From Haplodiscus bocki (Eukaryota): a DNA stretch of 64,000 nucleotides. Shown here piece by piece: positions 3,932 through 62,246 of this stretch (positions within the stretch are counted from its first letter, which is position 1; every line of letters begins with the position of its first letter). A program made the position numbers and the translations under genes. The stretch is taken from NCBI GenBank assembly GCA_965655095.1, contig OZ296659.1, forward strand, positions 45,260,001 through 45,324,000, read 5' to 3'. Under the pieces are notes generated by a model. It was not told the DNA's origin. It searched no databases and saw only the letters and a list, made by a program, of their open reading frames with translations.

Positions 3932-4630
3932 TTACATACTAAGGGACCCACTACGGCCATGACCTTTTTTACTTGTTTTTGCTAAGATTATGTTGAATTT
4001 AATGATATTTCAGGCAATTTTGTCTGATTTTCACTCTTTTTCACTGTTTTTTTGAGTTCTTGATGGTATTTTTTTCAGTCATTGTTTCCGAAAATTTTGC
4101 CATTCTTTAGATTTTTTCAAGACCTTTCATATGGTATATTATATTTTTCTGTAGCTCAAATATTAAATACTTTTGGCAAAATAGTAATCTGGTTTTGTGT
4201 TCCACGTTGTTTTTTGATTATGTTTTCAGAAATTAAAAATCGAATTGAGATTGTAAACTAAAATCAAAATCAAAATTCTGTCGACCTTTTTCACCAATTT
4301 TTTCGCCTTTTTGGTCGAAACTTTTTGATCTACGTTGGTGTAGTGGTCTAAAAAAACTTCGAATAAATTTTTTATTACGCAGCTGGAAAAGAAATGTGTA
4401 AAAAATTTTGATAGTGAAGAAAATTTTTTTACTGCTTTTTTTTCATTATTTCTGTGTACCCGCATTGACACAGTATAATTATATTTTCCTGTGTACCCTC
4501 ATTGATATTTTATAATACAAATCATTCTTTTTACATACTATGGGACCAAATACGGCTATGGCCTATTTTACTTTTTTTTGCTAAGGTTTCGTTAAATTTA
4601 ATGAAATTTCAGTTGATTTTGACTAACTTT
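3932..4630 (+). repeat. Diverged ~100-bp direct repeat pair (3932-4031 and 4531-4630)
   Basis: ttacatactaagggacccactacggccatgacc... versus ttacatactatgggaccaaatacggctatggcc...; also a short tandem pair ctgtgtaccc(g/t)cattga at ~4452 and ~4490. Confidence 0.8.
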
Positions 4631-5849
4631 TTCTGTTGTTCCTTGTTCTTTAACTGCTTTTGCTTTATTTTGTCCCCGTAGTTGATTTTACCATATACTC
4701 AGGTCGATAGGGAAGTTGCTTGCTAAATCCTTTGAAAGAGCTCCCATCAACTTGTCCATACTTTCCTGTCTGTCACTTCAATTAACGAAACCAAACTTGA
4801 GCGTCACTCCAATAAAAAGCGCTGCTTGAATTTTGTGCCACCTGTATTGGGGAATCTCCGTTGCTCTTCGAATGAATGAATCAATGAAACTTCAACCTCC
4901 GACAACCTGGAAACCCAAAATGATCAGTTAGGACACATTCAAGAAGATGAACGATCAAGAACATAGAGCTTCTATGAGCTGTTTTCTGCGAAATGTTCGA
5001 CTACGTGCTGCGTCGCACAAAACACTGGCGAAGCTGGAAATTCATAAAAAATACGTGAAAAAGCTCGGTACGTTACCAAGCAGTTGGTCTGACAGATCAT
5101 CTAACTTGCACAGGAACCTCCGTGCAAACCACAAAGTTCAACCAAATGATCGATCAACCAGATGCCACTCACTGCAACAGGGTGTTGCAAAGTTGGTATT
5201 TTTATCCAGCAGCATCAAGCTAGTCAACAAGAGTAATCATCCTAGACAGGTGGCCATAGACGCGTATCCGGGAACAACTACTGCTGGGAAAGCAAGCTTA
5301 TTATATGTAGACATTGAAATTAACACTGGTGCAGTGTTATCGCAGTGATCTATTGAAAATTATCTTACGGAAAGAGAAGCAACTCATGATTTTGCATCAA
5401 AAAACAGTGCTAAAAAACTTTCGTTCTACCCAGAACAAATGCAAACACGCCTTATCTTTAGAGCAACTATTACAAGTTTCAGCTGTTTTTTTTCTACAAC
5501 AATATAAATTGTCTTTCTAGGTTACTCCAATAAAGACTAATGGAATGTTAACAAGCGTGGTTTGCTTTCCCCTAGAAGAGACCCTCAAGCTCCAGATGTT
5601 CCATGCCCGATTGAGTCAACAATAAATATTGAATAAATTCTTATCGATTACCTTGATCAAAGTTTAGTTTTTCAGGTTCCTTTCGAAGCTGATCATTGAG
5701 CAACAGTTGTACTAACACCCCAAAACAAAGGATACGAAGCCGAAAATCAAATGCAGTTTTGCTGATGAAATTTTGAGAAAAGCCTTTCTGTGGAAACTTT
5801 GATGGTTGGTGTACATAAATGTGCTAATGCTCCTCAAATCCTGAAAAAA

Positions 5850-6293
5850 ATCAATTCCCCAGTAAACAGAGCATTGAGGAAGCTCATCACTTTGAGAATG
5901 GTCTGCATTAGAATCTGGAAGTCCGGAAATATTCTAAGGTTGAGTGGCTTGAAATCGACCGAGTTTTATTCTTCGACAATGCACACTGGAATCCAAAAAA
6001 AAACGTTAAAACAGTCCTAGAGTTAAAGGTGTGAAGTTGAGAATCAGAGAAAAATGTCTTCCATCTCAGCTATGTGATTCAAACAAGCGCTTTTGAAAAA
6101 AATGCTTCTAAATCTAGCTGGCGACTTGTTAATAATATCTGCAGCTTCTAAATTGAACTTGCGGAAAAATCAGTTCTAAGAATTTCTTCTGGAGAAAAAT
6201 TTTAGGGAAGAAAGAATTAGCCGATTTCCCTATTTACAATTTTGTCCATTAGCATAGTTTTTGCAAGTAAGGCGATTGAATCGAGAAAGGAAG
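5850..6293 (+). mobile_element. Possible APE endonuclease region of a CR1/L2-like LINE (part 5' of the Polinton A insertion)
   Basis: Degenerate motifs in APE order: NRALR (NxRSL), KVEWL (ETWL), RVKGV (RGGGV), ADFPI (GDFN). Highly decayed. Confidence 0.35.
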
Positions 6294-6353
6294 AGTAGTA
6301 TAGAGGTTTGTATGATTCGCAACGGGTCCCAGGATTGATGCAATCCTTCAACG
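6294..6353 (+). repeat. Left terminal inverted repeat of Polinton A
   Basis: agtagtatagaggtttgtatgattcgcaacgggtcccaggattgatgcaatccttcaacg closely matches the reverse complement of 21018-21077. Confidence 0.92.
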
Positions 6354-8854
6354 CGAGAGATGATCCTCCCTCCAGACAAGCGTAGGTTACAAATTCAGGT
6401 TGTGTGACTGTGCACATTTCAAGTGTTTATTTACATAGCGGAAAAGCTGAAGTTACAGTGACCCAGTCCAACTAACGGTAGCTGAACCACACATCACCTC
6501 CTCACTAACTGCGCTATGTCCCAAAACAGAAGAAATGTTTAGGGTGATATCAAAACAGTAGATACTCAGGCGGCACTATTACAAAAAAAATGCACTACTT
6601 GATAAAAGATTTAAACTGAGAAAAGCGAAACGAAAACACGGAAGATCTTAAGTCCTACATAGAAAGGTAGACTTTTAGATATTTACGATTTGTCATAGAC
6701 GATTTTGATTTTCGCAAAAATTGGCTCTCTCAAGTGTTGAAAGAAAATTCAAGTGTCTCATGGTTTGATCAACAAGAAGTCAGAGGTTCCTTAACATCAA
6801 TTTTATCCGAAATTTTGCCAAATCAACACTCATTGCTCTCTAATTTGAATTACAAAAATTAACCCAACTTCAGAAAAAAAAACAAACAATCAACCATCTA
6901 TCGAATTACAGAAAAAACACTATTTCTGAACGGACGACCTTACAATTTTGAAGAAATCCAAATCGAAGTGCCAAAGCTAATCATCATGTCAGCCGACCAG
7001 GAATTAGTTGAAGTCAAAGACAATATCTCGGATGACAAAGAGAACACTAAACCCGTCAGTACCACGAAATCCATTCTCTTTTCAAAAAACAACCTCCGGA
7101 AAAATAGCTGACAATTTGAACTGGAAATCGAAAGGAGATAACGCTGAGAGCAATTAGACACAGAGTTTACGAAAAGTACCTGCCTAAAAAGGTAAAAAAT
7201 TCTCTTCTACGAGAAAACAGATTACTTTGAAAGTGCAGCACCTCACAACAAAAAGAAATACCAAACGAAACCAATTCCGAGTCCGCTATCAAGCAAAAGC
7301 TATGGCAGCCGATGAAGATGGGTTCTATGGCTTTGCTGAAGTTATAAGGCCGGCGCACAAATGGGCGAAAGAACAAGCAAAGTCAAGGCACTAGCCCATA
7401 TGTAACAACAATTATTGGGCTCAACCTTACATCGGAATATAAAGATGGTTCGCAAAATTGTTAAAGGAAAGCACGCGAGTACAACCGTGATTTTGAATCC
7501 TGCACCATGGATTAATGTGTACATTCCTATCCACTTGCCGAAAAACGTTCCTACACTGTCGCATCGAAGACTCTGGCATCAACATTTCTGGGAGAGAAAG
7601 TGACCTTATCAACATGGCCACCACAAATGATAAAGCCAAGCGTATGCTTACATTTTGTAATGAACACTTGGTTTATTTATTTTCGGTGTTTCATTTCAGG
7701 TAATTTTGTACCAAACTTTTTTGTTGTTCTTCTGAATCCTTCAGAGTTCTCTTTATGAGGACAAAATTATCCTCAGTGGTGTATCCGGCACCTCACAGTC
7801 TCAGATTAATTCATCCCAGGGACTCTTATACCGGCTCTAATTAAACGGGCGATGTGTATTGCTGGAATTTCTTGATAAAATTTGATTCGTTTTCCAACGT
7901 AACGGACTTGTGAAGAATATTTCGCTGATAGTTTCGACGAGCAATTCCATTTCGATATGGTTCTTTTTCAGTAGCAAAACTTTAATGGTGTTTTGAGCAA
8001 CACTTTTGTGCGGTACTGTTTTGAGGAGCAATTTGATACAGTCCTCTTTCGTTAGCGACTTTTTTGCGATGCTATGGACAACAAATTTGAACGATACTTT
8101 TTTTGGAGAGAAGTTTGATAGGGTTTTCCTTCGATAGCAACATTTTAACCTTGTACTGGGCGGAATATTCTTACGATAATTTTCTGACGAGCATTTCGAG
8201 ACGGTGCAATATCTATTGGGTTTTTCAACGGTAATTTGGGCATCATTCTTGTATGATACTTTTCTGACAAGCATTTGGATAGACATGGAACAAAATACTG
8301 AAAAACAGACAAAGACAACAAACAAGATCCCAAAAAAACTTACTCTTTGTCGCTAGAGATCAATACCACACCACTGCGTTTATATAAAGGCTCAAACAGA
8401 GAAAATGAGCGAGGAGGTTCCTGCTCTGAAAGATGTTTTACAGAATGAATATCCAAATTAAAACTCTCCCATGAAGTGTCGACTTACTCAGCTTCGTCAT
8501 CAATGAAAAGAGAATAGAATCGGCAGCCTATAGATTAATTTTTCGTAACTTCATCAAGGGCCGCGATACCTCCGAAATCACTTTTTGACTAGATCCGTTG
8601 AATAATATCAAGGTCTAGTGCTGAAAATCTTTCATCTGATCAAAGAGACAAGGTGATAAACTCATCAACTTCAATATAATCCCCCACCTGATAGCGTTGC
8701 GTTGATGAGAGCAATCTTGCTAGTCGTAAAACAGTAATTTCTCTAACAATTCTCGACCAATTCAGCGTCAAAAAATTTTCCTACATCTCGTTTTTTTCAA
8801 TCCGGTCATGTTCCTCCGCAACTGCTCTCAAAACAGGGGTGTAACGAGTTTTCA

Positions 8855-11800
8855 AATGTCCAAAAGGTAAACAATTTATGACATCTTCTAGACGGAATGT
8901 CTTATGATCAATGTCAGACAGGGAAATTCTTAAGGTTTTGGAATGCCATGAGACCAGGTTTCAAAGAGCTTCTTCTAATGTTAACTGAGCGCATGATACC
9001 ACCTTTGTTCGAAACGTTTTTGTAAACCTGATAGATTAGGATTAATGCTTGAGCAAAGCGACAAACACCTTTGGCTGACAGTTTCTGATTGTCTTTAGAA
9101 AAGATAGATTAAATCTTCACTTCCAATTAAACAGACTTCTTACTACTGCTTCCACTTATGTCATTCATGAACTTCAAGGTAACAATTTTTTTGCGGAGGA
9201 ACAAGGAAGGGGATTAGCAGGGTAGTTTGAAAAATTGAAAGGTTGTTACGAAGAATCGTTTCCCAAGATTATTTCGTTGAAGTTTTCGCTACGTCTCAAA
9301 GAGAGCAGACAATCACTAAAAGACTGAAGCGAAAAGCATCCAAACGTAGCTTTCATCACTTACGGAATCAAAAGAACGTTCACGAAAAGACACCACTAAA
9401 CCAAATGATCGCGAAAAAACAAAACGGAACTATTAGTTTCAGGAAAGACAATAATTTGCGCTTTTTGGAAGCAACTCAACGAAACTAATTTCCTAATTAA
9501 AGTAGAACATGTGATAATTTGCCAAGTCGAAGTTACCAGCACCCACAAGACCAGAGAGTCTGGTTCTCGCGACAAGTAACAACGGTGTTTTTGTCAGCGA
9601 AAAATTTATTGGATTTAATGAAACTATTTTCTAGGTTTTCCGGAACACCTTCTCAAGGATGTGGAGTGTTGACAAAAACTCGATTGCATTTGCTTTCGAA
9701 AGTTTTACCGTAGAATGAGTTTGTCATCAATTTGTAAAAGTATTCTGAAAAATGGTTTGTAGTTTTTTAACACATTTCGGTCTTCAAGTTTGTTGACTGA
9801 AACTTTTCAAGGTACTGAATGAACTTCAAAAAGTTTCTTTCCAATGGTTACATGCATTCTAAGGTGATGAATTGCAAAGTTTAAATGCTGTTTTGATTCG
9901 AGGTTTGCACAGGTTTTTTGTTAGACACTCGCTTTTCCCCGTGCTTTTCCACGAGAGATAACTGGAAATCAGAGACTTTCATGATCAATTTTTCCTTTTG
10001 TCGGGGTAAGGAAACGTCTTTGTAATTTATGAAGAGAATTGAGATGCTCTCAATCGACTTTGAGGTGAAGGCCACCGGGGGAATCAATTGAGGTGTTCAA
10101 GATTAGATACAATGACAACTTGTTAGCTACTTCAAAAACACACAATGGCCTATGATACTTCACCATGGCACCACCATATGAGTTAATAGATTCTATCATT
10201 AGAACGAGCGTTTTAGTTCTCACTTCGTCCGAAATTGACAACGAATCGTTATTGCTTGTCGCAAGATATTCGGGGGAAACAGAAGCAAATCAACCCTTGC
10301 ACAAATTTTCGGCAAATTCTAATTGTTCTCGATCTGCAAATCTTTCCAGAGAGGCAATAATAAGTTTGGGAAATGCATCGCCAGAGAGAAGAGAAAAAGG
10401 GGCATTAGTGTGCACTGTCTTATCCATAAAAAGATTGAGCCAGTTTGCGGAAAAACTCAAAAACACAAGCCAACAGGAGATTACCAGTATAGAGGTAGAA
10501 ATTATGATAATCTCCGCGGTTTTCACATTCAAAAGTTTCCAGCACTTTCTGCACATGGAGAAGACTGTCTGAGGTGACAGGCAATTTTCCACCGTGCAGA
10601 GAGTTAGTCCAGTAACGGAGTTCACGTAATCACGTTTCCAAAGTTTCCGCAGTAGAATCGAATTAACTGTAGGGACAGAAACTTTTTTGACACAGAAGTT
10701 GGTGGTCCGATTCATTGTATCCGGAAGTTTTCCTTAGACGAGAAACTTACTAGCTTTTCGAAGAATCCTTAAACTGGCAAAAGGCGACGAATCTAAGGTA
10801 TTCGTATACATTGCTTTTCAACGCCCCAAGTATAATTATACCTCGCAACTTAAACACCTATAGAAAACGTTCAAGACTTTTGACCAGTCACAGGGTTAAC
10901 ATGAACCGTGGAACCGTTCGAAAAGAGAGTTAGATTTTCAAAGATATGACGTAGATGATAGTTTGACAATTTGTGACCTGATAATCGGAAACAATTAACT
11001 GTCCTCATTTTCAAGATGCATTTGCTATGCGACATGCCGGTGAAGTGGCAGTGCACTGAAACTTTGTCTTTTTCTGTCAATGGAAGCTCACACAGCCAAC
11101 ACAACGAACTATCAACCAAAGAAACAGAACCTCCTAAAAATCTCTAATGCTGATTTTTTCTGATAGATATCACCTGCAAAACCTGCCAAAACATCTACAA
11201 TTGTTTCCATACAATTTCCCAACCGCTCAAGTTTTTTGCGAACGCCGGTTTTGTGTTGTACAGTTCAGAAACTATCAAACAAAAATCACACGGGTGGTGA
11301 ACTTCATTGGACTCCGTTGAGCCACAGTTGACGTCGTTTTGACGTCCGCAGGCTTTATCAGGGTTTCAAAATCAAAATAAATCACGAAATGCGCGAACCA
11401 TTTAGACTGATAATTGGTTAAATTCATAACTTTTTTCTCATTGCTCGACATTTCGATTGTAGCATGCTCAATTCCGAAACTTGTTTTGATCTTGTGTTGA
11501 TAAATGAGTTCGCATGAGCAAATATCGAACCAAATGCGGCCGATTCGACTCATGCAATCGGCGGACTTGCTGTGGTATGTTACTAACAAGAATGTTTAGA
11601 GCTTCATCTAGAACATGGTGACCAATTTGTCCACCAGTTACGACGAACAGGTCCAACATTAACCAAAAATCTCTGATTTTTGAAAGGGGGAGAGGATTCA
11701 AGCTATAGTTTTGGAACCGAAGAAGATTCGCTTGACTTTTCTTCCGTTTCCCGAACCTTGGTATCTCGTTGGAACCCATAGAGGTTACAAAATCTCCCAC

Positions 11801-12400
11801 CGGATGTTGGGCTACTTTATTTGAAGTTTTAATATGTCAGTGCTAATGCGCAAAAGACAGGAAGCCTTTTCATGAAGACCTGAAATGCCCTGCGGCTTTG
11901 ATAAAATACAAGAAGCAGAGATTGTCATCGCGTTGCCTGATGTTGAGGTCACAATTCAAACTCTGTAGAACTGCTGGTAGAGCTAATTAGGACGATACCC
12001 TATGCTGCAATTAACACACTAATTGCATGTCAACTCCGTCATTTTTCTTCAAGATCAATCTAGCTCCGTGAGAGCTAAAAGTGCGTAATTTGAAAGCATT
12101 TTATGAAGCACTCGTGAAAATTTTTCATCAGGAGGACGTTAACCAAAAAAAACCTTTTCCTTTTTGGAGCTGGCAGAAATTCTTGTTAGAACACAAATGT
12201 TTACAAAACATAAACGGCATCGTGAAGATAAAACGTGCTGTCTACGCTAATCTCACGAAGTCTCAACACAGTTAGTTAGGGAGCTTTTGGTGCCAATTTA
12301 AAGATAGAAGCGTACAAATACTCTTTTATCTAGGCCACTTATCCAAACAGAGAAGTTAGTCATGTGTAACAAGTTAAGACTCTCCTTTAAAAAACCAAAA
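8855..12400 (-). pseudogene. Protein-primed PolB of Polinton A with HNH/endonuclease-VII-like insert
   Basis: Ordered motifs on the minus strand: LNIRQRDDNLCFLY, HFVIYFDFETL (ExoI), CWLC...VHCHFTG (endoVII-like), INSYGGAM (motif A), FYKLMTNSFYGKT (motif B, ~9700-9740), LSAKGV, ISLSDIDHK...LPFGH. Confidence 0.9.
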
Positions 12401-15400
12401 GCGTGACAAAGCACGTGCGCTTTGTCTTGACAGAACAAATCAATCCATCAATCGAAAACAGATAAATATCAGATTTTCATCAAACTCAATAATTTTTCAC
12501 CAAACGTTAGTCAGCGAGACTTCTAATTTGCTTCCCTGGACTACCACGCGTCCAGACGCAAGAGCGATCAGACTGATCCGTGAAAAACATAAAACCGAAT
12601 CCCTACTAAAAAGACAAAAATCAAGTACCGAGAAATGTTTTCAGATTTACTCAATCCTAAACAGCAGGAATTTGATTTCTTCAATAAGTATTTAGAAACT
12701 ATGTGCAGTCATTTTCGAAAACAAAACAGTTTCAAAGATCAGACAATTTCGAGGGTCAAAACATCACTTCAAAAAGTGAATTTAAGAGATGTCTCCGTTT
12801 TTTTGGACGCTTGAAAACAATCGTTTGGTTCACTTGGTTTGGCTTTCTGGGTGTTTCGCCTGTGAAACCATGACTATCTTGGAAATTTTGTCTTTTGGAG
12901 GGGTGACAAACTTCAGGCTTGTGATTTCTTTTTTTGCGTGAGACTTCTTCTGTTGAGTGTGGGGTTTTTTCGCTCCGTACAAGGTCTCAAAACCATTCAA
13001 TTGCTTTTACATTACTGCAAAACCCCTATTAGTTCTCGGACATGGGAATTTCCTCACAATCCAGCTTGAACAAGTTAGTGCTTTCAAGTGAACGTAAGTC
13101 ACTTGTTTCTGTTGAAACGTTCTGTCCAACAAACCTACTGCTCCAAGACAATCGACAAAGGAAGTCGAACCAATTTATGCTCTGAAAACGTCAAAAGTGT
13201 CTTTACGAACAAACACTGAACCTTCAAAAGACAACTCTTCATCGAAAAAAATTCGATCCCTTGAAAGTAGCTAAATAAGTCGTGAACCAAGATTCATAAA
13301 AAGTAAAACGATTATGATCAGCAGACCCGGCGAACGTTTGATTTTTAATTCTTATCGTTGCATTCAAAACTTATCGCTGTATTAGGAAAAGATATTCAAC
13401 AACTTTGAAGCTAAAGAAACTGAAAACTTCCCAAGGAAACAAATTGTGTGTCTATATGGAAAACGAGATCGGATAATCGGGAACAAATTTTTCGGGACAT
13501 TAACAATAACAAACTGAAAGCTTGCATGTAAAGAAAGAAGACAAGTCCACTTATCTCCGATTCCAATTCATTCCGGAGAATCAAGTATAGTAAATTGGTT
13601 AAAATTAGCATAAAGGGAAACAATTTCACAACCTATTTCGGTTTACTTCCTGGACGGAGAGAAAATACAAAAGAAAACATATGTCATACGACATTCAGCG
13701 ACTAAATGGGAACCTACTTTACGAGTTAAGGGAACTGTTTGAGTCCTTGGAAAGAAGTATGTAGACACCTGTACGACATATTCGATGAGGAATTAACCTA
13801 TGACTAAGCGTCTAGATGGTCCAAGACAATTAGATCGGTGGGAGCGAGCCATCAAAAATCATTCCATCTATTAAACTTACTTCATTCAACTTGTCAATTA
13901 ATCGCAAAAACAGTTAAAATATTATACTCTCTCTTAGAAAAGTCTTTGAGAAATAAGCCATTTTTCTACATCGACCATCCACAAAGACTTCGGGTATAGT
14001 TTCTTCAATAAATCCTAGACTGAACAACCGCATTTGAGTTACCGCGAAAGCGGATGCCATGAATGGAACATTGATATTTGTCAGACTATACAAAAAAAGA
14101 ACGGATGGAAATATTTTAAATATCAGCGTGTTTCCCTAACGAAAGCAAATGAACAGGAATTTATAAAAAACAACTAGGGACCCAGCGACGTCGAAGAAAC
14201 AAAACTTCCTAAAACGAGCAGAGTGACGAATCACCAATGAACTCTCATCAAATTCTAACATAACTTCATACTTCATGTGGATAAACTGGTTAATTTGAAC
14301 GCTCAATTTATTGCTTGATTTCAACATCCAACCATGGGTTTTTCCAGACGTGATATAGAGTTTTCGCATTGCCAACGGACTAACAATTTTCCCTTCTGTC
14401 AGTGCCAGGATGGTTGAGTCGATGCACAATTTTCCAAGGTTTCATCTAAAATCGACAACAACAACCAGTCGCGGATTTTGCCGGGATATTGCATAGTGGT
14501 TTTAGAAATTTTTCAAAAAAGTTTCTTAAAAAAACTATATCTATTGCCGCGATAGAGAAACGCATTATCGAGTGCTATCAAACGGTAAATCTCAGGAGAA
14601 AGATTATGATGTACTGTCTTTGTATTCAACATAGTTTTATCTATTGCATAAACCAACGAACGTGACACGAAAACGTAAAATGATGCAGAAGCTGAGACAC
14701 TTGGAAGAAAAAAATTGCAAGATCGGAAAAATTCACTTTTGCAGCAGAAGATAAAAATTCGAGACAAAATCTCACGTGTGAGTTCTAGGATTGTTAATAC
14801 CCTCCAAACAATTGAATTTTCAACATTTTTACTGACTCGCTAATGTAACATCCTAGAAAGTGCCAACACCCAGACTCGCCGGAAACCTGCTACTCTCAAA
14901 CCAAAATTCTGCTGCCTCCCGAAAATAAATTTGTATTTTTCTGCAATTTGAAAACTTTCTTCGAAAAAACTATTCTTTTTTCTCATAGCAGGAACACGTT
15001 TTTCGACAGAAAATTTTCGAATCATGAACTTTTCTGAAAATTAACCTGATAGTTTTTTTCTTGGTTTTTTTGGCCAGTATCTCGAAATACGTCAAACGTT
15101 TGAGTTACATAGTCTTTCATTTTATGTGCAGACGACACTTTTTCAGATAATTCCGAAAAAATTACAGCCTAAACGGGAATTTTTCCCATTCTACCTAATC
15201 TGATCTAAATGTTAACTCTGCCAATTCTGCCGTTTTCTGCTCGCCGCAGATTTTCTTGGTGTCTGCCAACACTACGAACTATTGTCTTAGACATTTTCAC
15301 TGCCGGTTATGGTAAAAGAATTTTTCGCTATTGGCACAACCCAGTATTTGGCTAAAAACAAGATGGTTTTAAATATTTTATTGCAGGAAACTTCTAATAC

Positions 15401-15559
15401 AACAGGAAGCAAACGTAGTTTATAGAAGATATAGTGTCGACTCGAACTTCTTCAAAAAAAATAGGGAAACTCTTTTGAATTCAGCTCATTTTGATCGAAT
15501 TCATTCTTGCCAAAAAAAGGACCAGATTTCCAATCACATGTTTTATGAATCGATTCAGT

Positions 15560-15968
15560 TTATTTTCATCAACTGTCGGTATCACAGAATTTTACGCTCT
15601 AAAAACTTAGTCCGCATATAAAATACAGAAGAGTCCGCATAGGTTTGAAATATATTTGGGGCTGATGACTCACAAGTTTCAGTTACCATATTTGACATAA
15701 ACTATGCGGAAACCCACCTTACTGTGAGTGTAGAGTTCTCACTCGAAAAAATCGCTAAATGAAACGTCTCCATTTCCATTTCAGATCAAAACCCAGTGTG
15801 ACTTTTCTGCGCCTGAATTGTCTAGGTTCACTGTCATGAAAGATTTCTCATCAATTGAAACGAGAAAATTGTCCACGGCAAAACACCAATGAATTCCATT
15901 TTCAGATGCTCACAATTACTGATATGTTGCCGCAATTTCAAATCACTAAGTTTTATTCGGCTAACCAT
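15560..15968 (-). pseudogene. Adenain-like cysteine protease of Polinton A
   Basis: EFIGVL...VNLDNSGAEKSHWVLI (catalytic His region) and LCGLFCILYA (catalytic Cys region, ~15610-15640). Confidence 0.8.
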
Positions 15969-17285
15969 CACTGCTCAGAGAAAAATTCTTTGAAAACTTC
16001 CGATATGAGTCAAGGTATAGTGTTGATGTCTTTTCACCTACGAAAAACTGCTCTACACTGTCCGTAAATTGAATTGAGATTTGTAGACTAATGGAAATAA
16101 AGCCCTTGGTGAGTTCAGGATAAAACAATTCAAAAGAGATTTCCTGGGTACGTGTCCAATTTAAAATTGAAACGTATTGATTGGGAAAGTCATCCAATGA
16201 TACACCTTTTGTGTGCTGTTTAAAAACTGAATCTTAAAGGGAATTGAGATAATTCTTTTTGTCATTGGCCGTCTGTAAAGGAGTTCCAGCATTTGGGTAA
16301 CCATTTCAACATAATTTAGTACTCTCTAAACCAAGCTTCTAAAATGATGTAGTTTTTCTTCTTGGGGAAACGCTTCCTGGGAGTCATTGCAGCAGCAGCA
16401 AACATTCGAAGAGGTTCACAGTTGAAAATTTTTTTTCGACGCCAACTTTTACTTCCGGTGGAAATGAGGACTGTTTCGATAGGATTTTGATAACTCGGTA
16501 AAGAGCGGGAACTTTGGCGATGTAGTTTCGATGGCGGAATATACTTCGTCACTCACAGTCATTATGCGCACAAACAAAAATTTTTCGGTTATTTCAACCC
16601 ACAACACTTAAGCTTCATCATCGTAAGCCAGACAGTAATCAGGACATTTCCTGAGAAAACGGACCTAAATGTTGAAATCACCGATGAAATGTCAATCAAA
16701 TGAATAAAAATCTGTAGCGTGTTTTCCGATAGACGAAGCAAGGTTTTATTCTTTCGTTTTCGTTTTTGGCTTCGTAAAAGGAGTTGTAGTATAATCGTTG
16801 TGTTCTCTTTCATTGGTGTAGGCCTGGAATCTCAACCACGTTTTTTGACTTCCTTCTTGTGCAAAAATTTGTTTTCAGTTAATGCTTCTTCAGCAAATTG
16901 ATTTCTGGTTGAAGAAGTTAAGTTAACATTTGCGGTAAAACTACACCCAGAGAACAAAAGAAAAAACAGTGTTAATGAAAAAAAATGGTACATCGGCTTT
17001 AACAACGTTTGCTGCATCGTAGTCAATTTTAAAGCCAATGAAAATGGGAGTTTTACTTTTGACTTCAAGTTAACGTTTTTGCAAATCAAAGAAATTGGTG
17101 AGACCTCCAATTACCTCAAACTCTCGAATGAGACCATTTGGTGCACTGACAGGATTAACTTCTCCATCAACTGAGGTTTCAAAAATAATATGTGACTAGA
17201 GACGTTCAAAACTATTCGGCGAGCAATGCGAAGTTTCAAAAAGCACAACAAAAGGCAACATTTTTGACTATGGAGAAGAGAATGG
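15961..17285 (-). pseudogene. Major capsid protein (double jelly-roll) of Polinton A
   Basis: APNGLIREFEVIGGLTNFFDLQ, IFNCEPLR and the C-terminal TQEISFELFYPEL...VGEKTSTLYLD are collinear with the element B MCP. Confidence 0.8.
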
Positions 17286-17299
17286 CCGACATCTCTGTG

Positions 17300-17620
17300 G
17301 TTTTGATTTCTTTCGACTATTTTTTTGCCTGTTCTTGCACAGTTTCGGTAGGCACCAGACGCCAGTTCTGTTTTAACAGTTTTTTTCCCAGCAAACTTCA
17401 AAACTCATTTGCGGGACTTTTTTTCTAGGAAGAGCCATTTGTTCAGGTACGAATTGATTGGAGACTTTTTAACTGGTAGATTTAACCGGCGGCAGAAGAT
17501 CTTTTTTTTGTAAAAATCACGGCAAAAACCTGCTGCTAACGATCCAAACCCATTGCCTGCTCGATCGTTTTGCCAGGAAGAACGTGGTAGAAATGTTTGA
17601 CGCGAGTAATATTTTTGGAT
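17300..17620 (-). pseudogene. Small basic QRGxG-type core protein of Polinton A
   Basis: YYSRQ...RAGNGFGSLAAG followed by a K/R-rich tail; lies directly upstream of the MCP, as in element B. Confidence 0.6.
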
Positions 17621-17699
17621 TTCATAATTCTCTGGTGTTTGGAGTTTAGAGCAGGCTGCCTCTGCCGACGAAGAGACATAGTGACCGGTGGAAGTTATT

Positions 17700-18330
17700 A
17701 ACTCAGGGAAGTGTTGATGACTCCACTTCCGCACTAGTTCCATGATTTGCAATTCTGTAAAGACTTTTGGGTTGTGGTAGGAGTAACATCGAGTGGAGCC
17801 AGTCACCAGTTTGCGGATCCAAGTCAATCAAAAAACAACCGTGGGGCTCAGTCTTCACTTTTTTATTCGAATCTTGTTTGAATTCAACCATCTTCAACCG
17901 TTTTCCAAACTGGTCGGCCTGTTGCTCGTCGCGTGGTGATTTGAAGAGAACAATGTGTCTTGTATTTAGATCTTTAGCGCGTGATAACGTGCTTTGAAAG
18001 AGCAAACTTTGTTGGACGAAATTGCGACCCTTCTCTTATGTCGGCCAGCAACTGCAGTTTTAGCGAAATCATTCTCTCGCTAAATTTCATCGCAAGAGTT
18101 GTCAAAAACCAATAGAATTAGCAAGTTCCTTGATCATAACAAAATCAAGACGTGGAAGGAATTCAATGTCCAACATTTTGGACATCTCATCAAACAGCGA
18201 TCGGTACTTTCCATGAAAACAGAAAGATTTCCGAATTTTATAGTGAAACATCGTCTGAAATGAGAGCATTGAGAACAACAATTACATCTTACCAGATCCA
18301 ACAGGTTCAACCACACATATTAAGAGGCGT
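17700..18330 (-). pseudogene. A32/FtsK-like DNA packaging ATPase of Polinton A
   Basis: ICVVEPVGSGK (Walker A), LLVFDNSCDEI (Walker B), AVAGRH, DLNTRHIVLFKSPRDEQQ, PHGCFLIDLDP. Confidence 0.88.
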
Positions 18331-18920
18331 TCGCTTGTGAAATTTATACTGTCCACAGTATCGATTAGGAAGTACGTATCCGTCTGCAACTGACGAAAGT
18401 GTCACTCAAAATGACATGTCCATGCAAAAATTTTCGGAAAACACGAGTTTCTTTCAGCAAGTTAGGAGAAAAATCAACAAAATTAAAGCTTGCAAGATGA
18501 AAACTACTTCGAATCATGGTAATGCTGAAAAAATACAAAACTTCCATAACGACACGTCACTAGCTCTTTTATCGGAAACTAGATGGTCAAGGCCTACGGC
18601 GTCTTCAACATCAATGTTCCGTCCTTGAGAGGTATGATCAAAACCAACTGATCGCTGAGGAATTAAGAAAGTTACTCCACACTGCGATTTCCTACGGACA
18701 GCAGTTGGGAAGGAAGGAAAGAGGGGACTTCGACAACATCCTCATGAACACTGAGCTCATCAGTTATCTGTTTGGGAAGACGAGAATGCATTGAAGTTAA
18801 AAAGTCAACAGTTTGAAATTTTTTTCCCTTCATATATTGTTTCCAGACTTGGTTTGACATTTTGAAGTTTAAAAAGAAACAGGAAAATAGTCGATCGAAG
18901 AGGCACTTGCTTGCAATCTG
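18330..18920 (-). pseudogene. Probable minor capsid (penton) protein of Polinton A
   Basis: RLPKQI...EVPSFLPS and VFRKFLHGH resemble the element B mCP (FLPVQI...EICFPS; FWRVLMHSSH). Confidence 0.45.
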
Positions 18921-18922
18921 TT

Positions 18923-19920
18923 TTAATCGGCAACTGATACATTTTTTAGAGTCTTTTGCAGGAATATATGTTCTCCTAGTTTTTTATTTTCTTGTTTCAC
19001 TAAATCAATAGAAAATGTTTCGAAGTCAATATTCTGCATCTCCAGGCTGTTCCCTGAAGATGCAAAGAATAGTTTTGGGACATAGTGAGATGGAGGCTGT
19101 CTTTGTCTCTCAGTGCCGCACATAGGACAAAACTGTTGAGAATGACAAAGCCAATTTACAAACAATTTGGTTTTTTCTTTAGCTCAGTGGTACAGTGGAC
19201 AAGGAACTTGGACCACTCCGAATTGCGGTTTTCAGGCAAATTGAAGCTTTAGGACAGTTGTGTTGGCCTAAATCAGTAACATGACGGAAGTCATTACGTG
19301 AAAAGTTACACCTATCCATTCTTTCGGAGAGCACAACTTTATTTGGGAAAGGTAACATTTGGCTGATGAGATAACAGAACAGAAAAATTTAGTCATAGGC
19401 ACCCAAGAAAGTACATTGCCACCCACGCGCAAAATTTTTTCGCTCTTCGTGTAACTGAAAAGAAAAGATATGGTGGTTTGAAAAGAAGTTTACCCTTTTC
19501 ATCGCTCCACGAACAGATGTTCCTCCAAAAGCAAAAAATTTTTTATACGACGAAAAAAGCGTTCGAGGTCAATAACTACCGATTAGTGAGTTAACTTTGC
19601 AACTTATCAGAGGAAGCGGTACAAATAAACATGAGTTGCAGAGCGATAGAATGAAGACTGATTGTGCGGGCTTGACAAACGTCGATGTGCAAAATACCAT
19701 CGTTATTGGTCAGCATTCAGCAAGCAGCAATCATAACCAACAGAAACCCTAAATTCTAAATCGTTTGAACAACCAATCCAAACTTTGGAAACTTTCGTGG
19801 AGAAACTTGAAAAAAAGGTGTGGTCCAGGAAAGGAATATCTCGAAGTCACGTTTGGATCATAGGTGCTTGTCAAAATCGCTGCTGCCTAACGAGAGCGTT
19901 CGGCAAACCTTGAATTTTTC
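18923..19920 (-). pseudogene. Integrase of Polinton A, degraded
   Basis: PRKFPK (compare RRKFPR in element B), NNDG, WSDEKG (WTDxG) and C-terminal SHYVPKLFF...LGEHIFLQK. Confidence 0.55.
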
Positions 19921-21017
19921 TTTTGTAGGATTGTTTCATTCACCCATTCCTCAGAAATCTGCCATGTAAAAGAAGGCTGAGATGACAAACTCAAGACACA
20001 GTAAGGCGACATCTGTTTGAATTAAACCAGGTAACCTAGTGTTGAAAAAAACGGCTCCTTTCCCGACGGTTTGAAAATCAGTTTGGACAGGAGTATGAAA
20101 TTGGTTGTTTTTGATGCAGAATCACAAAACCTATCAAACATTTGGGAGAGACATTCCACCTGCTGAGAACGGAAAACTTTAGCAAAAAAAAGAATTAACT
20201 TTTGAGGGCAGCCTAATCCTCATGAAAAACACTTTTGAATCGTATAATATAAAGAAAAGCTTCTATGCTTTTTTTCCGAGCGAGCTGATAGAAACATATA
20301 TCTTGAGCATTCGAACTAATCAAAAATTGATAATCTGCCAAAAACTTAGTATATTCTAGGAGAACTCTCGTTGGCTTGTAAGAATTTGGACAATTGTAAA
20401 TTTAACCAAAATTAGGTTACGGAAGTTTGTTCATTAGAAGATTCATTTCGTATTCCAGGACATTTCTATAAAAAACATTCAACATAATTCTTGATCTCAA
20501 TTCTATTGTCAATCGAATAGACGTGTAATATAGTTGGATTTTCGTTCTCTGAGTCTCGCAAATCAGCGGGGGAACAAAAAAACGATCTCTCTCTGCAAGC
20601 ATAACTGAAGCAAACTTGAGAAACGTCAGTGTAGTTTCCAATATTCAATTTTAACTCAGGTGTACTTCACTTCACTCTCCCATGTAAGGGTCAAGGCAGT
20701 TAGAGGCTGCAACTTTCACATCTGGAGAGAAGAAACCTTCACCTTCTTTCAATCAATACTCGTCGTAATGTTGACGTACAATGTGTAATAGAACTTCTCG
20801 TTGGCCAAACAGGTGACATTGTTGTTGATTCTGAACCGTAATTGGATTTATGTTCAGTCTCGTAGAGCTCACAAGCGAAAGACTATGACGAGAGTCGACG
20901 ACAGAAACCCGGAAATGAAACCGAGCAGAATTTAGAACTGCTTGCTATTCATTCCGACGATTTTAAATGAAAAATTCATTTGAAATCTTTCCAGAAAAAA
21001 TGGGATTGGGGTTCACC

Positions 21018-21077
21018 CGTTGAAGGGTTGCATGAATCCTGGGACCCGTTGCAAACCATACAAATCCTCATACTACT
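21018..21077 (-). repeat. Right terminal inverted repeat of Polinton A
   Basis: cgttgaagggttgcatgaatcctgggacccgttgcaaaccatacaaatcctcatactact. Confidence 0.92.
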
Positions 21078-21083
21078 ACGAAG

Positions 21084-22757: not shown

Positions 22758-23193
22758 AACAAGACATTATATTGAAGATGCCATATAAAAGGATGGAAAC
22801 GTTTTTTTTTCAAAAACTACTCTTCATATATTTTCTAAATTTTCCAAATTCAAAAATTTTCTGCTTGTTTTGCAAAAAAAATTGAGGTGGAAAAGACTTT
22901 TTTTGAGAATAAATATCATTTGGTACGCATTCTACAGCAAATTTGTCACCTTCAGCGATTCAGAAAAATTCAAATTTTTGCTAAAAAAACATCTATTCTT
23001 TCAAAATATTCAAATTTCGACGGTTTCGAGCATTCCTACTGTTTCAGTCGCCTTCCACGGCAACTGAAAAAAATCGAAATTCAGAATCTGGGCATTGCCC
23101 GTACAATTGGCAAGTAAACGTTAAAAAAGCACTACTTTTGAGTGTTTGAGCGGATGATTTTCCTTTCATATTAAAAGTGCGCGGAAAGTAATA
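22758..23193 (+). mobile_element. Non-autonomous interspersed repeat (Helentron/HINE-like), copy 1
   Basis: aacaagac start, internal gcattctacagcaaatttg motif, gcggaaagtaataa end; shared with four other copies in the window. Confidence 0.7.
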
Positions 23194-23384
23194 AGTTCCA
23201 AATTTAGGCCCAAATTTAATCGAAGTCTTCGTTTAGATATTTTTGTAGCTATCTTTAGTAGATTCTCTCAACTCCGGGACTCCATAGGACAATAGGCTTC
23301 ACTTCGCTGGCCGTTAAAATTTTTCAAGCAGAACGTCAGCAATAAGACATTCTCACTTCGCGGGAAACCCTAAGGATGCACACG

Positions 23385-23517
23385 GTGAGTGGGTGATTTT
23401 GCTTCATCGTCTTTGGGGCGGAAAATAAAATGTGATTTTACTCAAAATTTTGTTCTATACAGGCTATACCTTCCTTCAAACACTTCTTATGTTATACCAA
23501 CTTTTTTCAACTTTCAG
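23385..23517 (+). other. Probable 5'UTR intron of the anoctamin gene
   Basis: Consensus donor ACG|GTGAGT at 23385 and polypyrimidine tract plus tttcag acceptor ending at 23517, about 110 bp upstream of the ATG. Confidence 0.55.
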
Positions 23518-23628
23518 ATATAGATTGAAGGCGCAGCTCGGTGCGCTTCGACATTATTAGAGTTCAGGGGCTGCATATCTGATTCATTTGCTTTGATAAT
23601 TTGTAAATACGATCAAAGTCTGCATGCC

Positions 23629-25656
23629 ATGGACCAACTTTTGCCTGCAAAGTACTTAATAGTTCTATCCCACGATGTTCCGGGTGCAGTTGAGACGTTT
23701 CTGAAAGAAACTTTGAGAATTAATGGCCTACATGTTGAAAAAGGAAGCCTTGGTGATCAGAAAGTTCTCTGCGTATCAGCTCCCTTCGAAATTTTTGCCG
23801 CCAAGGCTGAAGTCATAGGAATTGAAAAGAGTTTTAAACACGAAAATGAATTATATCTCATGCCTTTCAAAATGAAGTTATTGGAAAGTTACGAAACATC
23901 CGATTACTCGAGTTTCTTCACAGCTGCACAACAAACGCTTTTGCTCCGACTTGTACTTCAAAGCATTCCAGTGGAAGCCAGGACTTTAAATGAAATGGGA
24001 GTTGTTTTGAAGAAAAATTTAGCGAAATCGAGAAAAAATGATTTGCTCGAAGTTGAACTCCTTAGCGCCCTGCAAAACTGCAAAAACCGTGTTATAGAGG
24101 AACATTTTCCCCTTCACGATGACAGTGCCAGAAACAAATTGTGGGAGAAGTTCAAATCGGAACCTTGGACTACTCCTATTGCTGAATTGCAAACCTATTT
24201 TGGTGAAGAAGTAACTTTCTATTTTGCGTGGGTCAATCATTTCATGCGATCCTTAATCTTTCCTGGAATAATTGGCCTTGTGCTCTATTTTATTCGTCCA
24301 AAAGGTGCTGATGTCGACCATGCAAAATGGTTGCCGGGGTTTGCTATGATGGTATGCTGTTGGTCTGTTTTATTCACTGTTATCTGGCGACGCAAACAGA
24401 CATCCTATGCTTTCAAATGGGATACATGTGACTTTGAAAGAGTAGTGGAGCAACGCCCTGAATTCTTTGGAGACGTGCGTTCAAGTCCTGTAACTGGTCT
24501 TCCTGAACTCTACTACCCAACATGGAAAAAGATGTTTCGATATTGCATCAGCTTTTTAGCGGCAACGCCAATGTTGATGTTGGCAGTCAAGGCCATGTTA
24601 TTATCGCTCAATTTGAATGGTTATATCAAAGATCCTGATAGTATTTTTTATGTTCACTTTTTGTGCCAATACGCAGAACCAGGAGCTATTTTTGCCCAAG
24701 ATAGTCCCTATAACTTATGGATTGTGCCAACTTTAATGCATTCTCTTATGATATTCATTCTTGGATCAATTTATCGCCATATAGCTGTTTGGTGCACTGA
24801 TTTTGAGAATCATCGCACTGTTGAACAGTGGAATAACTCGTTCATTACGAAACGATTTTTGTTTGAAGCTTTTGATTGCTACACGCCATTGTTTTATATA
24901 GCTTTCTATCGCCTTGACATCAACTCTCTGCGTAGTGAGTTGGTAGGATTGTTTTGGGGCGATGAAATTCGTCGCCTCTCCGTAGAAGTACTTATTCCTT
25001 TGGTTTTATCATTCTTCAAACAGCGGGACGCAGATAAGAAATATCAAGAGACCAAAAAGAATGATAGCATATGTACAGCCTCGAACCTCAAACCTACCTC
25101 AGGCATCGATTGGCTGCAAGCTGAGAAAGAATTAGGCAAAGATGAGTACGAAGAATTTGACGACTATCTGGAGATGGTAATTCAGTTCGGTTACGTAACC
25201 TTATTCGCTTCCGCTATGCCTCTATGCTCAATCATATCAGTCATCTTTCTATTCATCGAAACTAAAGCCGATTGTTTTAAACTACTTTTTCTGTACAAAC
25301 GTCCACATTCAAGAAGAGCTGCCAACATCGGAGTGTGGTTGCGAGTTTTGGATATGATGACCATGTTGTCATTGCTGACAAATGTCTTGCTGATTGGGTT
25401 CTCATCGGAACAACTGCAAATGTGGTTTCCACAGTATTATGATTTCTACGAGAACGATCATTGGATCAAGATGGGAAGTGGTCGCTATGTCGTGGCCGTT
25501 GTTTTCATCATGGAACATGCGTTAGCAGTGTTTGCAGCTGTTGCACATATTTTTGTGGAATACGAATCTAAACAAACCAGAAATGAGAGATTACGCAAAG
25601 AGTATTTGCAGAAGCAAATTGAACTTTCGCCCCTTTGGAGGAATTCAAAGGTGTAA
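23629..25656 (+). CDS. Anoctamin/TMEM16 family Ca2+-activated scramblase/channel (ANO10/TMEM16K-like), 675 aa, single coding exon
   Basis: Only long intact ORF; ATG in GCCATGG context; motifs FPLHD, YFGEEVTFYFAW, ENHRT, FDDYLEMVIQFGYVTLF, ETKADCFKL...RP, NIGVW; multiple hydrophobic segments. Confidence 0.95.
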   Translation: MDQLLPAKYLIVLSHDVPGAVETFLKETLRINGLHVEKGSLGDQKVLCVSAPFEIFAAKAEVIGIEKSFKHENELYLMPFKMKLLESYETSDYSSFFTAAQQTLLLRLVLQSIPVEARTLNEMGVVLKKNLAKSRKNDLLEVELLSALQNCKNRVIEEHFPLHDDSARNKLWEKFKSEPWTTPIAELQTYFGEEVTFYFAWVNHFMRSLIFPGIIGLVLYFIRPKGADVDHAKWLPGFAMMVCCWSVLFTVIWRRKQTSYAFKWDTCDFERVVEQRPEFFGDVRSSPVTGLPELYYPTWKKMFRYCISFLAATPMLMLAVKAMLLSLNLNGYIKDPDSIFYVHFLCQYAEPGAIFAQDSPYNLWIVPTLMHSLMIFILGSIYRHIAVWCTDFENHRTVEQWNNSFITKRFLFEAFDCYTPLFYIAFYRLDINSLRSELVGLFWGDEIRRLSVEVLIPLVLSFFKQRDADKKYQETKKNDSICTASNLKPTSGIDWLQAEKELGKDEYEEFDDYLEMVIQFGYVTLFASAMPLCSIISVIFLFIETKADCFKLLFLYKRPHSRRAANIGVWLRVLDMMTMLSLLTNVLLIGFSSEQLQMWFPQYYDFYENDHWIKMGSGRYVVAVVFIMEHALAVFAAVAHIFVEYESKQTRNERLRKEYLQKQIELSPLWRNSKV

Positions 25657-25914
25657 TTCAGGTAAAAATAGAAAAATAATGAAACTTTGTCTCTTTATCT
25701 CCACCTCAGCTTTGTCGTAATCTGAATATTTAAAAAAAATCTATGAATTATAATTTTTATCAGAATATTTTGGTGTATTCATTTTCAATTATTTCAGTCC
25801 AGAAAATCAAATCTTATTCAATAGGAGTGTTTTAAACCTTTTCAGCTGATAGAAATACTGATGCTGACAAAATATCAGAGTTCTCGAAAAGAAAGACATA
25901 AGTTGTGGTTAAAT

Positions 25915-26220
25915 GATACGCTTTTAAAGGTAAAATTTTTTGGAAAAATAGATGGGTTTTTCGAAAAAAAACTTTTTTTAAACCGCTAAATGTGGCAAAT
26001 TTTTGGAAGAATGCGTATCAATTGGTATTATTTCTTTAAAATGTCTTTCCAACCTGTTTTTGATGTTTTTTTTTGGCTTGGAATCAGAGAATTCTTAGAG
26101 TTAGAAAATATGATGAAGAAACAGAGTATTTTGGGAAAAAACGCTTCTATCTCTTGCAGTCAGTCATCTGTACCAAAATGAGAAGGCGAGAAATATGCCG
26201 GTGATAGCCGGCCGTTTTTT
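25915..26220 (-). mobile_element. HINE-like repeat copy 2 (partial)
   Basis: gaatgcgtatcaattggtattattt... ending gccggtgatagccggccgttttt; homologous to 30955-31470. Confidence 0.7.
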
Positions 26221-26399
26221 TAAATCCCGCTAACTTGCCCATGGCGCAACTCTTCTTTTCATTAGTAATAAAAAACGCAGCCAACCTCTAGTTCTAGATG
26301 ATTTCTGTCCATTGAGCTGCTGGTTAAAACAAAAGCTACCTTTGAATGTCCAGAGAACCTTAAGTCTTTCATGAACCTTAAAAATAACCGCTTTGACCT

Positions 26400-27000
26400 C
26401 AGCATATACGGTAGGATATAAAGTAGCATAGACGGTAGCATATAAAGTAGGATACGGTCATCAAGTATTTAGGCATGGAGCTCGATAAATGCTTGAACTT
26501 CAAAAGTCATATGATTAATTTTGAAAAGAAGTGAGCGCATTTTCTGGTGTGAGACAGCGCTTACTAAAAAAAAATTCCTCACTTTAATATTACTTGACTA
26601 ATGTTCTCATTATAAACGGAATATTCAGCACGGAGGACGGGTCGCAGCACCTCTACTACTTCTTTCACGTCAAAAGGAGATTGTAGCAAAATGATATGGC
26701 TTAAATGAACGCGGGAATCGGCTTTTGATGAATTTTTGACTGTTTTTGAATTGTATGCGCACTACCTTTTGAAATTTACTTTGAGAAGCACTGATAATCA
26801 TGATTTGCATGACGATTTAAATCAAGTTTGTCTAAAAGAGAAATCATCAAGTTACACTAAATTGTTCACGAAACGATTTGTGAATGATTTTATTTACTAC
26901 AAGGCTTCTTCGATTCAGGTCAGAAGTTCCAAATTGATTATCTTATGCTCAAAAACCACATTTTATAACAAAATTGTGGTCAGCTGTCTGAGAATGAAAC
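26400..27000 (+). mobile_element. CR1/L2-like LINE RT C-terminal fragment
   Basis: VIKYLGMELDKCLNFKSHM at ~26457-26515 (KYLGxxLDxxLxFxxH). Confidence 0.6.
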
Positions 27001-27724
27001 TGAATTTTCAGTTCATAATTTTCAGATTCTTTTGTCAGAATGAAGCGCTGATACGAGAAATTTTTGTTCTTTTTTGGAATGCTTCTTTTCGGTTGTTTTT
27101 TTTGTTTTTGTTCTTAAAAATCAATTACGAGTAGTAGAGCGCCGTCAAGTCCGTTCCTATAGTGATCAGATCACGGAAAAGTCTTTTTGACCCATATATT
27201 TAGTACGAAGGGCCTAAGGAGTGTTCGTCGACGAAATTGATTCAGAGACTTTTGGACGTACAATCACTATTTACGTCGTAGTCGCTCTTCGATAAAACAC
27301 CCAAACTGGCGATCCCAAGGGGAGTTATACTGGCCTCAAATATAGCAATTTTTTCACTCAACCAGGAACCTGTGATTTTCCCGTTTTCTCTAGAAGGAAA
27401 AAATTCCTTCAGAGTTTCTTTACCTGTTTCTCATTCTGAAAATAGAATAATGGCTGGTTTAATAGGAGGACGTCAAGTCCCTTTCGCCTGTCCTTTCCAA
27501 AAAGTAAATGGTTGGTTCTAAATGGCAAAATTACTTAATGTTTTTTTCTCATTTTGGTAGCCAAATCACTTCGTCAATTTAGAGAAATTTAAGCTTATTT
27601 ACGGTATCACTCAATTGTGAAGCGCAGATTCCCCGTCTGAACATTTTTTGAAATTTAAAAAACAGTTCTACGAAAAGTTTTCTACGAACGTCAGTTCCAC
27701 CATTGATTTCTATATCTTATGCAA

Positions 27725-28170
27725 AGGAGGGGAAATCACGATTTTCCTTTGAAAATTTTTTGTATCACAGTACCGAAAAATTTCGTAGGGGAACCCTTCC
27801 TGGTTTCAGAAAATTTCTGGTATCGAAAATTTTCATGCATAACAGGGGCGGGTACCACGATTTTCCGTCGTATTAATAAAATTTAAAAATGTAGGTAAAG
27901 GCTGGGATTCGAACCCGTACATACCGCTTCAGAGCCTTGTTGTCCTACCCACTTTGCCGTGGAAACAATTGGAAATTCTGACAAGCGTCAGTGAAATCAT
28001 AAGAATTTATGGCCCCACAGAGATTCGAACCCGGACCTACTGGTTGAGAAATTTTTGTCTGCTCAAATTTATTTTTGAATAAAGAGTCGGCAAAAATACA
28101 GTGATAAAAAAAGAAACGACCCCACTATACTGAATGAGATCTTTCTTGCATATTTGAATATGCGGCGAAT
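27725..28170 (-). mobile_element. Repeat carrying two tRNA-derived (Pol III B-box) segments; SINE-like
   Basis: Minus strand: ggttcgaatctctgtggggcca (~28010-28031) and agtgggtagg...gggttcgaatcccagcc (~27900-27953); no complete cloverleaf. Confidence 0.6.
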
Positions 28171-29558: not shown

Positions 29559-30067
29559 ACAAGACGGCCGGCCACCACCGGCATATTTTCGCCCTCTACC
29601 TTTGCTAAAGATACCTTTTAGAAGGAAGAAAGCGTTTTCTCAGAAAAATACTATCGTCAGCGAATTTTGATTTTTTTTTTCACATTTACAATTTCTGATT
29701 TCTTAAAAACTCTTGATTCAGATAGAAAAAAGTACCTTGTTGCAAAATTATTTCATTTGATTAGCATTCTACAGCAAATTTACCGCTCTTACCGATTTTG
29801 AAAAAAAAAGAAGAATTTTTTCAAAGAAACCCTTCACTTTTTTTAAAAAAAAAAAATTTGTACGTTTTGAGAAATCTTACTTCAGTCGCATTCTACAGTA
29901 GATTTGCTAGAATTGGGTGATAAAAAAACTTTTACGGTTAAAACATAGGACACTTTCACTCACATCGGACAATATCAATTAACTAAAACGTTTAAAAAAC
30001 GTTCGATTTCAGCATTTTTAGTGGATGCTTTTCCTTCCCTATTATAAATATAGGCAGAAAATAATAA
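29559..30067 (+). mobile_element. HINE-like repeat copy 3
   Basis: acaagacggccggccaccaccggcatattttcgccc ... gcattctacagcaaattt ... gcagaaaataataa. Confidence 0.75.
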
Positions 30068-31470: not shown

Positions 31471-31599
31471 TGCAATTATTTCCAATTGGTGAAGTTTAGT
31501 AGATGTCGACCATTGCTAATCTCAAACAATTTGAGGAAACATTTCCTTACTTTGACTTGGAAATATTTTTAGTCGATGAGGTTTTTGGAAGTGATTTTC

Positions 31600-61030: not shown

Positions 61031-61044
61031 CCAATCATTTAGCG

Positions 61045-62244: not shown

Positions 62245-62246
62245 TC

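Follow-up and report, generated by a model that had tools for sequence, protein, structure and literature searches.

A decayed, incomplete Polinton in the genome of Haplodiscus bocki, from an old family whose polymerase gene probably carries an intron

The 64,000-nucleotide stretch of Haplodiscus bocki DNA analysed here (assembly GCA_965655095.1, contig OZ296659.1, positions 45,260,001 to 45,324,000 of the forward strand; hereafter the window) holds a decayed Polinton, or Maverick, at 6294-21077, a span of 14,784 bp. Judged from its sequence, this is a genuine, incomplete Polinton whose integrase was lost by deletion, and in its present state it would make neither virions nor its own transposition machinery. 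Comparison with the rest of the genome places it in an old family of elements ~17-19 kb long with at least a dozen copies, here called family A. The polymerase gene of this lineage is interrupted by an insert that is probably a spliceosomal intron. We put the probability of the account as a whole (an old decayed Polinton with deletions, from family A and an intron-bearing lineage) at about 0.88.

Both ends of the element are preserved. Its terminal inverted repeats (TIRs) lie at 6294-6353 (+), where the element starts with AGTAGT, and at 21018-21077 (-), where it ends with ACTACT; the two 60-bp arms are identical at 52 positions, a repeat comparison gave a 65-nt inverted match at 85%, and the AG...CT termini are those of Polintons. 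Directly outside lie the two copies of a 6-bp target-site duplication (TSD) at 6288-6293 and 21078-21083, aggaag and acgaag, which agree at five of six positions (random expectation ~0.006 for one pair). In Polintons, a duplication of this length is made by the rve integrase. A preliminary description of this DNA had proposed an end-to-end integrated Polinton on the strength of these repeats and of flanks one base apart, and our results agree with it on each of these points. The 1.5-Gb host genome was searched with each element end, giving 107 and 182 candidates, of which 40 each were scored. This genome-wide search, which the preliminary description had named as a possible refutation, found the 60-bp repeat together with Polinton genes elsewhere. 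Among 14 end pairs examined, the TSD was perfect in five and matched at five of six positions in three, and the summed matches (63 over the 14 pairs) were reached in none of 100,000 re-pairings, whose maximum was 36; in three of the perfect pairs, where terminal bases are lost, the end was positioned by eye, and one pair among the 14 is not a true terminus. We further note that six family-A sisters measured also carry arms of 55-65 bp, so the short TIR is a family trait.

The interior of the element holds the remnants of Polinton core genes. Direct Pfam scans of the window (24 open reading frames, and 15 long frames with stops read as X) gave no Polinton domain, a blank that reflects frames too decayed to match and is not evidence of absence, and probes were therefore collected from intact natural relatives, namely integrases, penton-like proteins, polymerases, ATPases and capsids, and from family-C frames (see below). 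No stop-to-stop frame between 5000 and 22500 exceeds 171 residues, and an open reading frame track misses the element, as had been pointed out. Searches with the relatives by tblastn recovered the packaging ATPase, core-like, major capsid, protease and polymerase genes that had been proposed from the sequence, all on the minus strand. The major capsid gene (15970-17264) is full length and broken, with 434 of 440 residues covered (E 3e-71); the model of its relative (pLDDT, a predicted local accuracy score, of 66) matches the double jelly-roll capsids of PBCV-1, iridovirus, Sputnik and mavirus (Foldseek E 1.6e-14), and PF21738 occurs on 30% of one cluster of its Atlas neighbours. The ATPase remnant (17797-18359, E 8e-40) has lost its tail, and its relatives score over the Pox_A32 cut-off. 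The adenain-like maturation protease (15535-15882, E 5e-19 to a natural relative) is identified by a two-step link, in which that relative matches, at E 3e-12, a protein over the Peptidase_C5 cut-off; a PDB search with the window's own protease frame gave no match. Between the minor and major capsid genes lies a basic core-like gene (17286-17659, E 6e-11) that may correspond to PW of vertebrate Mavericks, a name given by position only.

The polymerase is of the protein-primed family B type expected of Polintons, broken and truncated as it is. Its first coding block (9490-12088, -) has many stops and frame changes and matches the database protein P0122 at E 5e-57; P0122 matches PF03175 at E 1e-13, and the polymerase frame of family C matches this profile at E 1.6e-12. 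The second block (8544-9359, -; E 3e-12), likewise decayed, corresponds to the part of the gene that holds the YxDTDS motif in relatives.

What the copy lacks is clear from its sisters. Of ten end pairs fetched, nine enclose a copy colinear with the one in the window. Two blocks are missing here, one of 2.0-2.5 kb at ~17790 and one of 0.6 kb at ~12180, each of which is present in the four sisters measured for it. The larger block, whose junction lies at 17786-17797, comprises the ATPase tail, the gene in the PZ position, the integrase and most of the penton (minor capsid) gene; the smaller comprises the start of the polymerase gene, its first ~200 codons, which in relatives include an N-terminal C2H2 zinc-finger region. 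Searched with a profile built from 28 intact integrases, the element gave no match, and the best relaxed tblastn match within it was E 0.88. The same profile matches at 60.1-60.9 kb of the window, in another element. Seven of nine sisters retain integrase remnants (E 9e-28 to 2e-99), whose relatives score over PF00665 (rve); the family thus has the Polinton integrase, and the window copy does not. Of the penton gene only the last ~50-60 codons remain (17620-17786, -, start approximate; profile independent E value 3.6e-4, tblastn E 3e-4), at a place between integrase and capsid that fits the Polinton layout.

The polymerase insert is best seen in family C (L059-L064; C12 and C6), a young family ~19.3 kb long with 72-bp TIRs, a perfect 6-bp TSD in both copies and 97% identity between copies. 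Its polymerase frame ends before the YxDTDS motif, which sits in a second block. With insert-free relatives as probes, 27 of 35 genomic loci show 125-208 extra nt at one codon boundary and eight show none. Across the 16 family-C loci, the insert starts with GT in 15, has AG at its projected end in 12 with a T-rich tract before the AG, and has a length that is not a multiple of three in ten. Family C thus combines GT and AG ends, a pyrimidine tract, free length and insert-free homologues, as a GT-AG intron would. The family-A insert is 125-136 nt long, and in the window it occupies 130 nt (9489-9360, -). The homology of four database proteins (P0122, P0274, P0275 and P0277) breaks off at this same position. 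In the polymerase tree (37 rows; midpoint root; long family-A branches; L074 and L078 left out as too short), all insert-bearing rows group with P0122 and P0274 in one clade (100/100), and the insert-free lineages fall outside. This placement makes a single gain of the intron the simplest reading. At least five polymerase lineages are present in the genome.

The history that we propose begins with a Polinton genome, a polintovirus of adintovirus type, that would have been inserted by its own rve integrase with a 6-bp duplication. Its ancestral layout ran on one strand, from ATPase through the PZ-position gene, integrase, penton, core, major capsid, protease and accessory genes to the polymerase, with one accessory gene on the opposite strand, as the sisters and family C show. 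One phase-0 spliceosomal intron between motif B and YxDTDS would have been gained once, in the ancestor of families A and C and two database relatives; if the intron is real, a working polymerase would require nuclear transcription and host splicing. After insertion the copy would have decayed neutrally, acquiring ~20% private substitutions, stops, frame changes, two internal deletions and a transposon insertion. In the right-hand 2.3 kb (45 pairs), the window copy is 72-77% identical to its sisters, which are 76-86% identical to one another. Its private differences are spread evenly over codon positions 1, 2 and 3 (19.3, 21.4 and 21.1%), with 19 stops in 948 well-aligned codons (2%), and across 35 copy pairs only eight stops are shared. 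With private change even over codon positions and stops rarely shared, these observations point to founders that were intact and to neutral decay since. Of 22 joints in the contig sets of four runs (two samples, one study), the 15 listed include none that skips the element, which is no proof of fixation, because contigs drop rare variants.

Several observations weigh against this reading. The penton assignment draws on a weak fold match, in which the relative's model (pLDDT 54) ranks the mavirus penton first with Z 6.5, a root-mean-square deviation of 3.6 and 116 aligned residues; the trees were built without labelled reference Polintons (the capsid tree also without L023); and splicing is predicted from the insert's own features. 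The splice ends of the family-A insert have for the most part decayed, with GT within 1 nt of the projected start in six of 11 loci and AG within 1 nt of the end in seven of 11, and neither is present in the window. An ATG follows the insert, so that a polymerase made in two pieces is possible, and the window copy's ends are less diverged (8-16%) than its interior (24-29%; P ~0.001-0.02), a difference that plain decay after insertion does not predict.

The ATG is a point in favour of taking the insert as something other than an intron, either the boundary of a two-piece enzyme or a small mobile element that killed the copies carrying it. The same methionine occurs in the insert-free relative L066 and is for that reason ancestral. 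The insert moreover falls precisely between two codons and has GT and AG ends, it occurs in young families whose frames are otherwise open and whose TSDs are perfect, and it keeps its position between families A and C while varying in sequence and length. We consider such a non-intron origin quite unlikely. The divergence of the ends bears on another alternative, that the copy had been dead or deleted before its insertion here and was moved as a non-autonomous element by a helper family recognising the same ends. The lower identity of the window copy to its sisters than of the sisters to one another would fit, as would the related families with long open frames in this genome and the short, internally deleted family-A copies with TSDs (L013, 0.8 kb, TSD 4/6; L038, 3.5 kb, 6/6; L037, 7.6 kb, 5/6). 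Against this, the stops are almost all private, the window's deletion is shared by none of the nine colinear sisters, and the sisters were found via their ends, which biases the sample towards conserved ends. The lower end divergence may owe something to sampling by ends, to conversion between the ends or to transposition of a copy that had decayed beforehand, and we judge the helper-driven origin improbable while taking it seriously.

The preliminary description saw in the element a complete fossil virus genome whose short TIRs and co-oriented genes might mark an undescribed lineage, a view that accounts for the presence of both ends and the TSD, for the co-orientation of the core genes and for relatives whose database names are uninformative. 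The content of the copy tells strongly against it: the integrase that had been listed is gone, the minor capsid gene that had been listed is there only in its last codons, the ATPase and polymerase are truncated, and with two blocks missing neither a complete genome nor a full virion module is left. Co-orientation holds for the core genes and fails for one accessory gene on the plus strand. Since TIRs down to 46 bp and same-strand modules have both been published (PMC8097293), neither trait sets a lineage apart. We therefore hold this view to be very unlikely. The lineage may well be uncatalogued for other reasons. It is harder still to credit assembly errors as the origin of the stops and frame changes. 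Mis-assembly does occur in high-copy repeats, and PMC10120064 reports such errors for protist elements. Contigs of four runs (two samples, one study) nevertheless span the element with both junctions and follow the window closely for kilobases, one 5,882-nt piece without a difference, although the assembly itself may have been built from these runs; and since the window copy is 23-28% different from its sisters, reads would not be confused among copies.

The genome search also showed that the family-A 60-bp end occurs in a second, distant family, B (L031/L032, L045-L049, L113-L145), with no nucleotide similarity in the interior. L031/L032 had been a candidate family-A sister pair and was reassigned to family B. 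Capsids of families B and C are 25-30% identical and their integrases ~40%. The polymerase of family B is different, lies on the opposite strand and has no Pfam or PDB match; its class is our assumption, from motifs judged by eye. Over 62-bp ends, mean identity is 0.90 within A, 0.87 within B and 0.88 (87.6%) between A and B, compared with 0.70 between A and C, despite the close protein relationship of C to A. In family B a 28-bp tandem array lies outside the 60-bp repeat on both sides, and a second AGTAGT end lies 373-769 bp further out in nine of 17 stretches; the A-type end is thus the inner edge of the long TIR of B. A family-B TSD was clear in one of two pairs, and there only when lost terminal bases are allowed for. 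We infer that the end was captured at one B end and then copied to the other. Copying to both ends is what adenovirus-like replication would do. Taken together, these features would define an uncatalogued Polinton clade with young, perfect-TSD families and one polymerase intron, gained ahead of the catalytic motif and kept through diversification, whose 60-bp end was captured by a distant co-resident family; we would give this fuller picture even odds.

Comparison with described systems shows how far this lineage is ordinary. Vertebrate Mavericks have TIRs of 46-1,447 bp with (AGT)2//(ACT)2 as the commonest end motif, lengths of 12.7-24.6 kb, gene runs atp-pz and int-mcp-pw-MCP-pro, same-strand modules in X. 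tropicalis and mostly degraded copies (PMC8097293; Barreat and Katzourakis, 2021). The elements described here share with them the 6-bp TSD, the end motif, the order of both gene runs, the same-strand modules and the degraded copies, and their TIR length and family size fall within those ranges. They differ in that the family-A polymerase follows the protease, whereas the vertebrate gene precedes the ATPase, and in the probable polymerase intron and N-terminal C2H2 fingers, where intact vertebrate elements are defined by intronless frames; PZ and PW are assigned here by position only. The pfam03175-type polymerase, by which Alpha adintoviruses are defined (PMC8502044; Starrett et al., 2021), is shared with that group, along with rve integrase, FtsK-type ATPase, adenain, hexon and a putative penton; the core Polinton gene set is listed in PMC4028283. 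For the N-terminal OTU domain of Alpha adintoviruses, a Pfam search gave no match in P0122, P0123 or the family-C polymerase frame.

Two further systems are close to the traits discussed here. Nematode Polintons include co-resident elements with swapped, very different polymerases and common TIRs (Jeong et al., bioRxiv 10.1101/2023.08.22.554363), which resembles the A and B families; there, the other genes are shared too, whereas family B shares only the 60-bp end, and has it inside its TIR. Dinoflagellate Polinton-like proviruses carry spliceosomal-type introns within full-length elements (bioRxiv 10.1101/2025.03.18.643946), those introns being recent introner insertions, in contrast to one inherited position here with insert sequences that differ between families. 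PMC10120064 (Bellas et al.) states that endogenous viruses lack introns, and passages of PMC11131425, PMC11296320, PMC12220804 and bioRxiv 2025.02.07.637071 contain nothing on spliceosomal polymerase introns. In the literature passages searched, neither a spliceosomal intron inherited by a Polinton polymerase nor an end capture of the A-to-B type is described; subscription papers, Repbase entries or supplements may describe one.

Other features of the window copy are minor. A degenerate subterminal tandem array of period ~27/81 nt lies at 7850-8350, with a weak periodicity (0.36 at 81-82, against 0.31 in a control stretch) that is clearer in two sisters; family C has an array of 27 bp x 71 in the same position, after the polymerase. 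Remnants of a ~245-residue accessory gene (12795-13370, -, E 7e-9; no Pfam match for its relative) and of a short conserved frame that lies directly upstream of the ATPase in relatives (18358-18627, -, E 2e-12) were found, and those of a ~236-residue gene (19242-19403, -, E 2e-10) whose relative has no Pfam, PHROG or convincing PDB match and which we take, from an unconfirmed motif, to look like a DEDD nuclease. The plus-strand accessory gene (14542-14840, ~224 residues in relatives) is faint in the window (E 2e-4), clear in three of nine sisters (E 9e-21, 6e-10 and 2e-19) and present in family C. At 14871-15265 the element is interrupted by a 395-bp miniature inverted-repeat transposable element, presumably hAT-like, that ends in short inverted repeats and is flanked by an 8-bp duplication (7/8); a first look at the genome gave 349 candidates, of which 40 were scored, and it is missing from sister L021. 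A word-based search with an ATPase fragment, a phage-collection search, two viral-contig scans and an Atlas search with part of the penton gave no match, and a metagenome scan gave two short contigs only.

Polintons are abundant and diverse in this genome, with 138 weak adenain-family matches (E up to 10), about two dozen of them over the cut-off. The window itself holds a second, different Polinton fossil at 58721-63455 (+), with ATPase (58721-59444), integrase (60108-60946), penton (61063-61823) and major capsid (~62160-63455) genes in the order of the first and a capsid that groups as sister to that of family B (98/96); over the following 20 kb, the probes used matched neither a polymerase nor an A-type end. 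This fossil may be the source of the integrase in the preliminary description. On contig C1072 (9347-23561), six family-A right ends stand in one orientation, by tandem amplification or as an assembly artefact; the family-A copy L033 contains a family-B 28-bp array (4497-4889) and capsid and protease matches on both strands, by nesting or rearrangement; and L116 (C3:72146620-) has the family-B end three times at 4.4-kb spacing. Beyond the right end of the element, by 2.4 kb, an uninterrupted 710-residue anoctamin frame (23524-25656, +; Pfam E 9e-107) is apparently an intronless host gene. Several copies of another dispersed repeat, probably a DNA-transposon derivative, lie in both orientations at 22891-31471 and 44298-44613, with a 32-nt inverted pair at 29558-29589 and 31440-31471, and a near-perfect 300-nt direct repeat at 407-nt spacing (33394-34100) is either a recent duplication or an assembly effect.

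The window copy is an unremarkable fossil of a group already known, with a modest variant in its lineage; as one of many dead Polintons, it matters little by itself. The variant bears on how such elements are counted and how they live. In surveys based on open reading frames, the polymerase of this clade would seem to lack a catalytic end, and functional elements would be counted as defective. An intron passed on by descent also speaks for a nuclear life cycle, and the end common to two distant families offers a test case for the exchange and homogenisation of Polinton TIRs. If the fuller picture is true, replication of this clade would be tied to host nuclear splicing, and the genome of Haplodiscus bocki would hold a record of end capture between co-resident polintoviruses.

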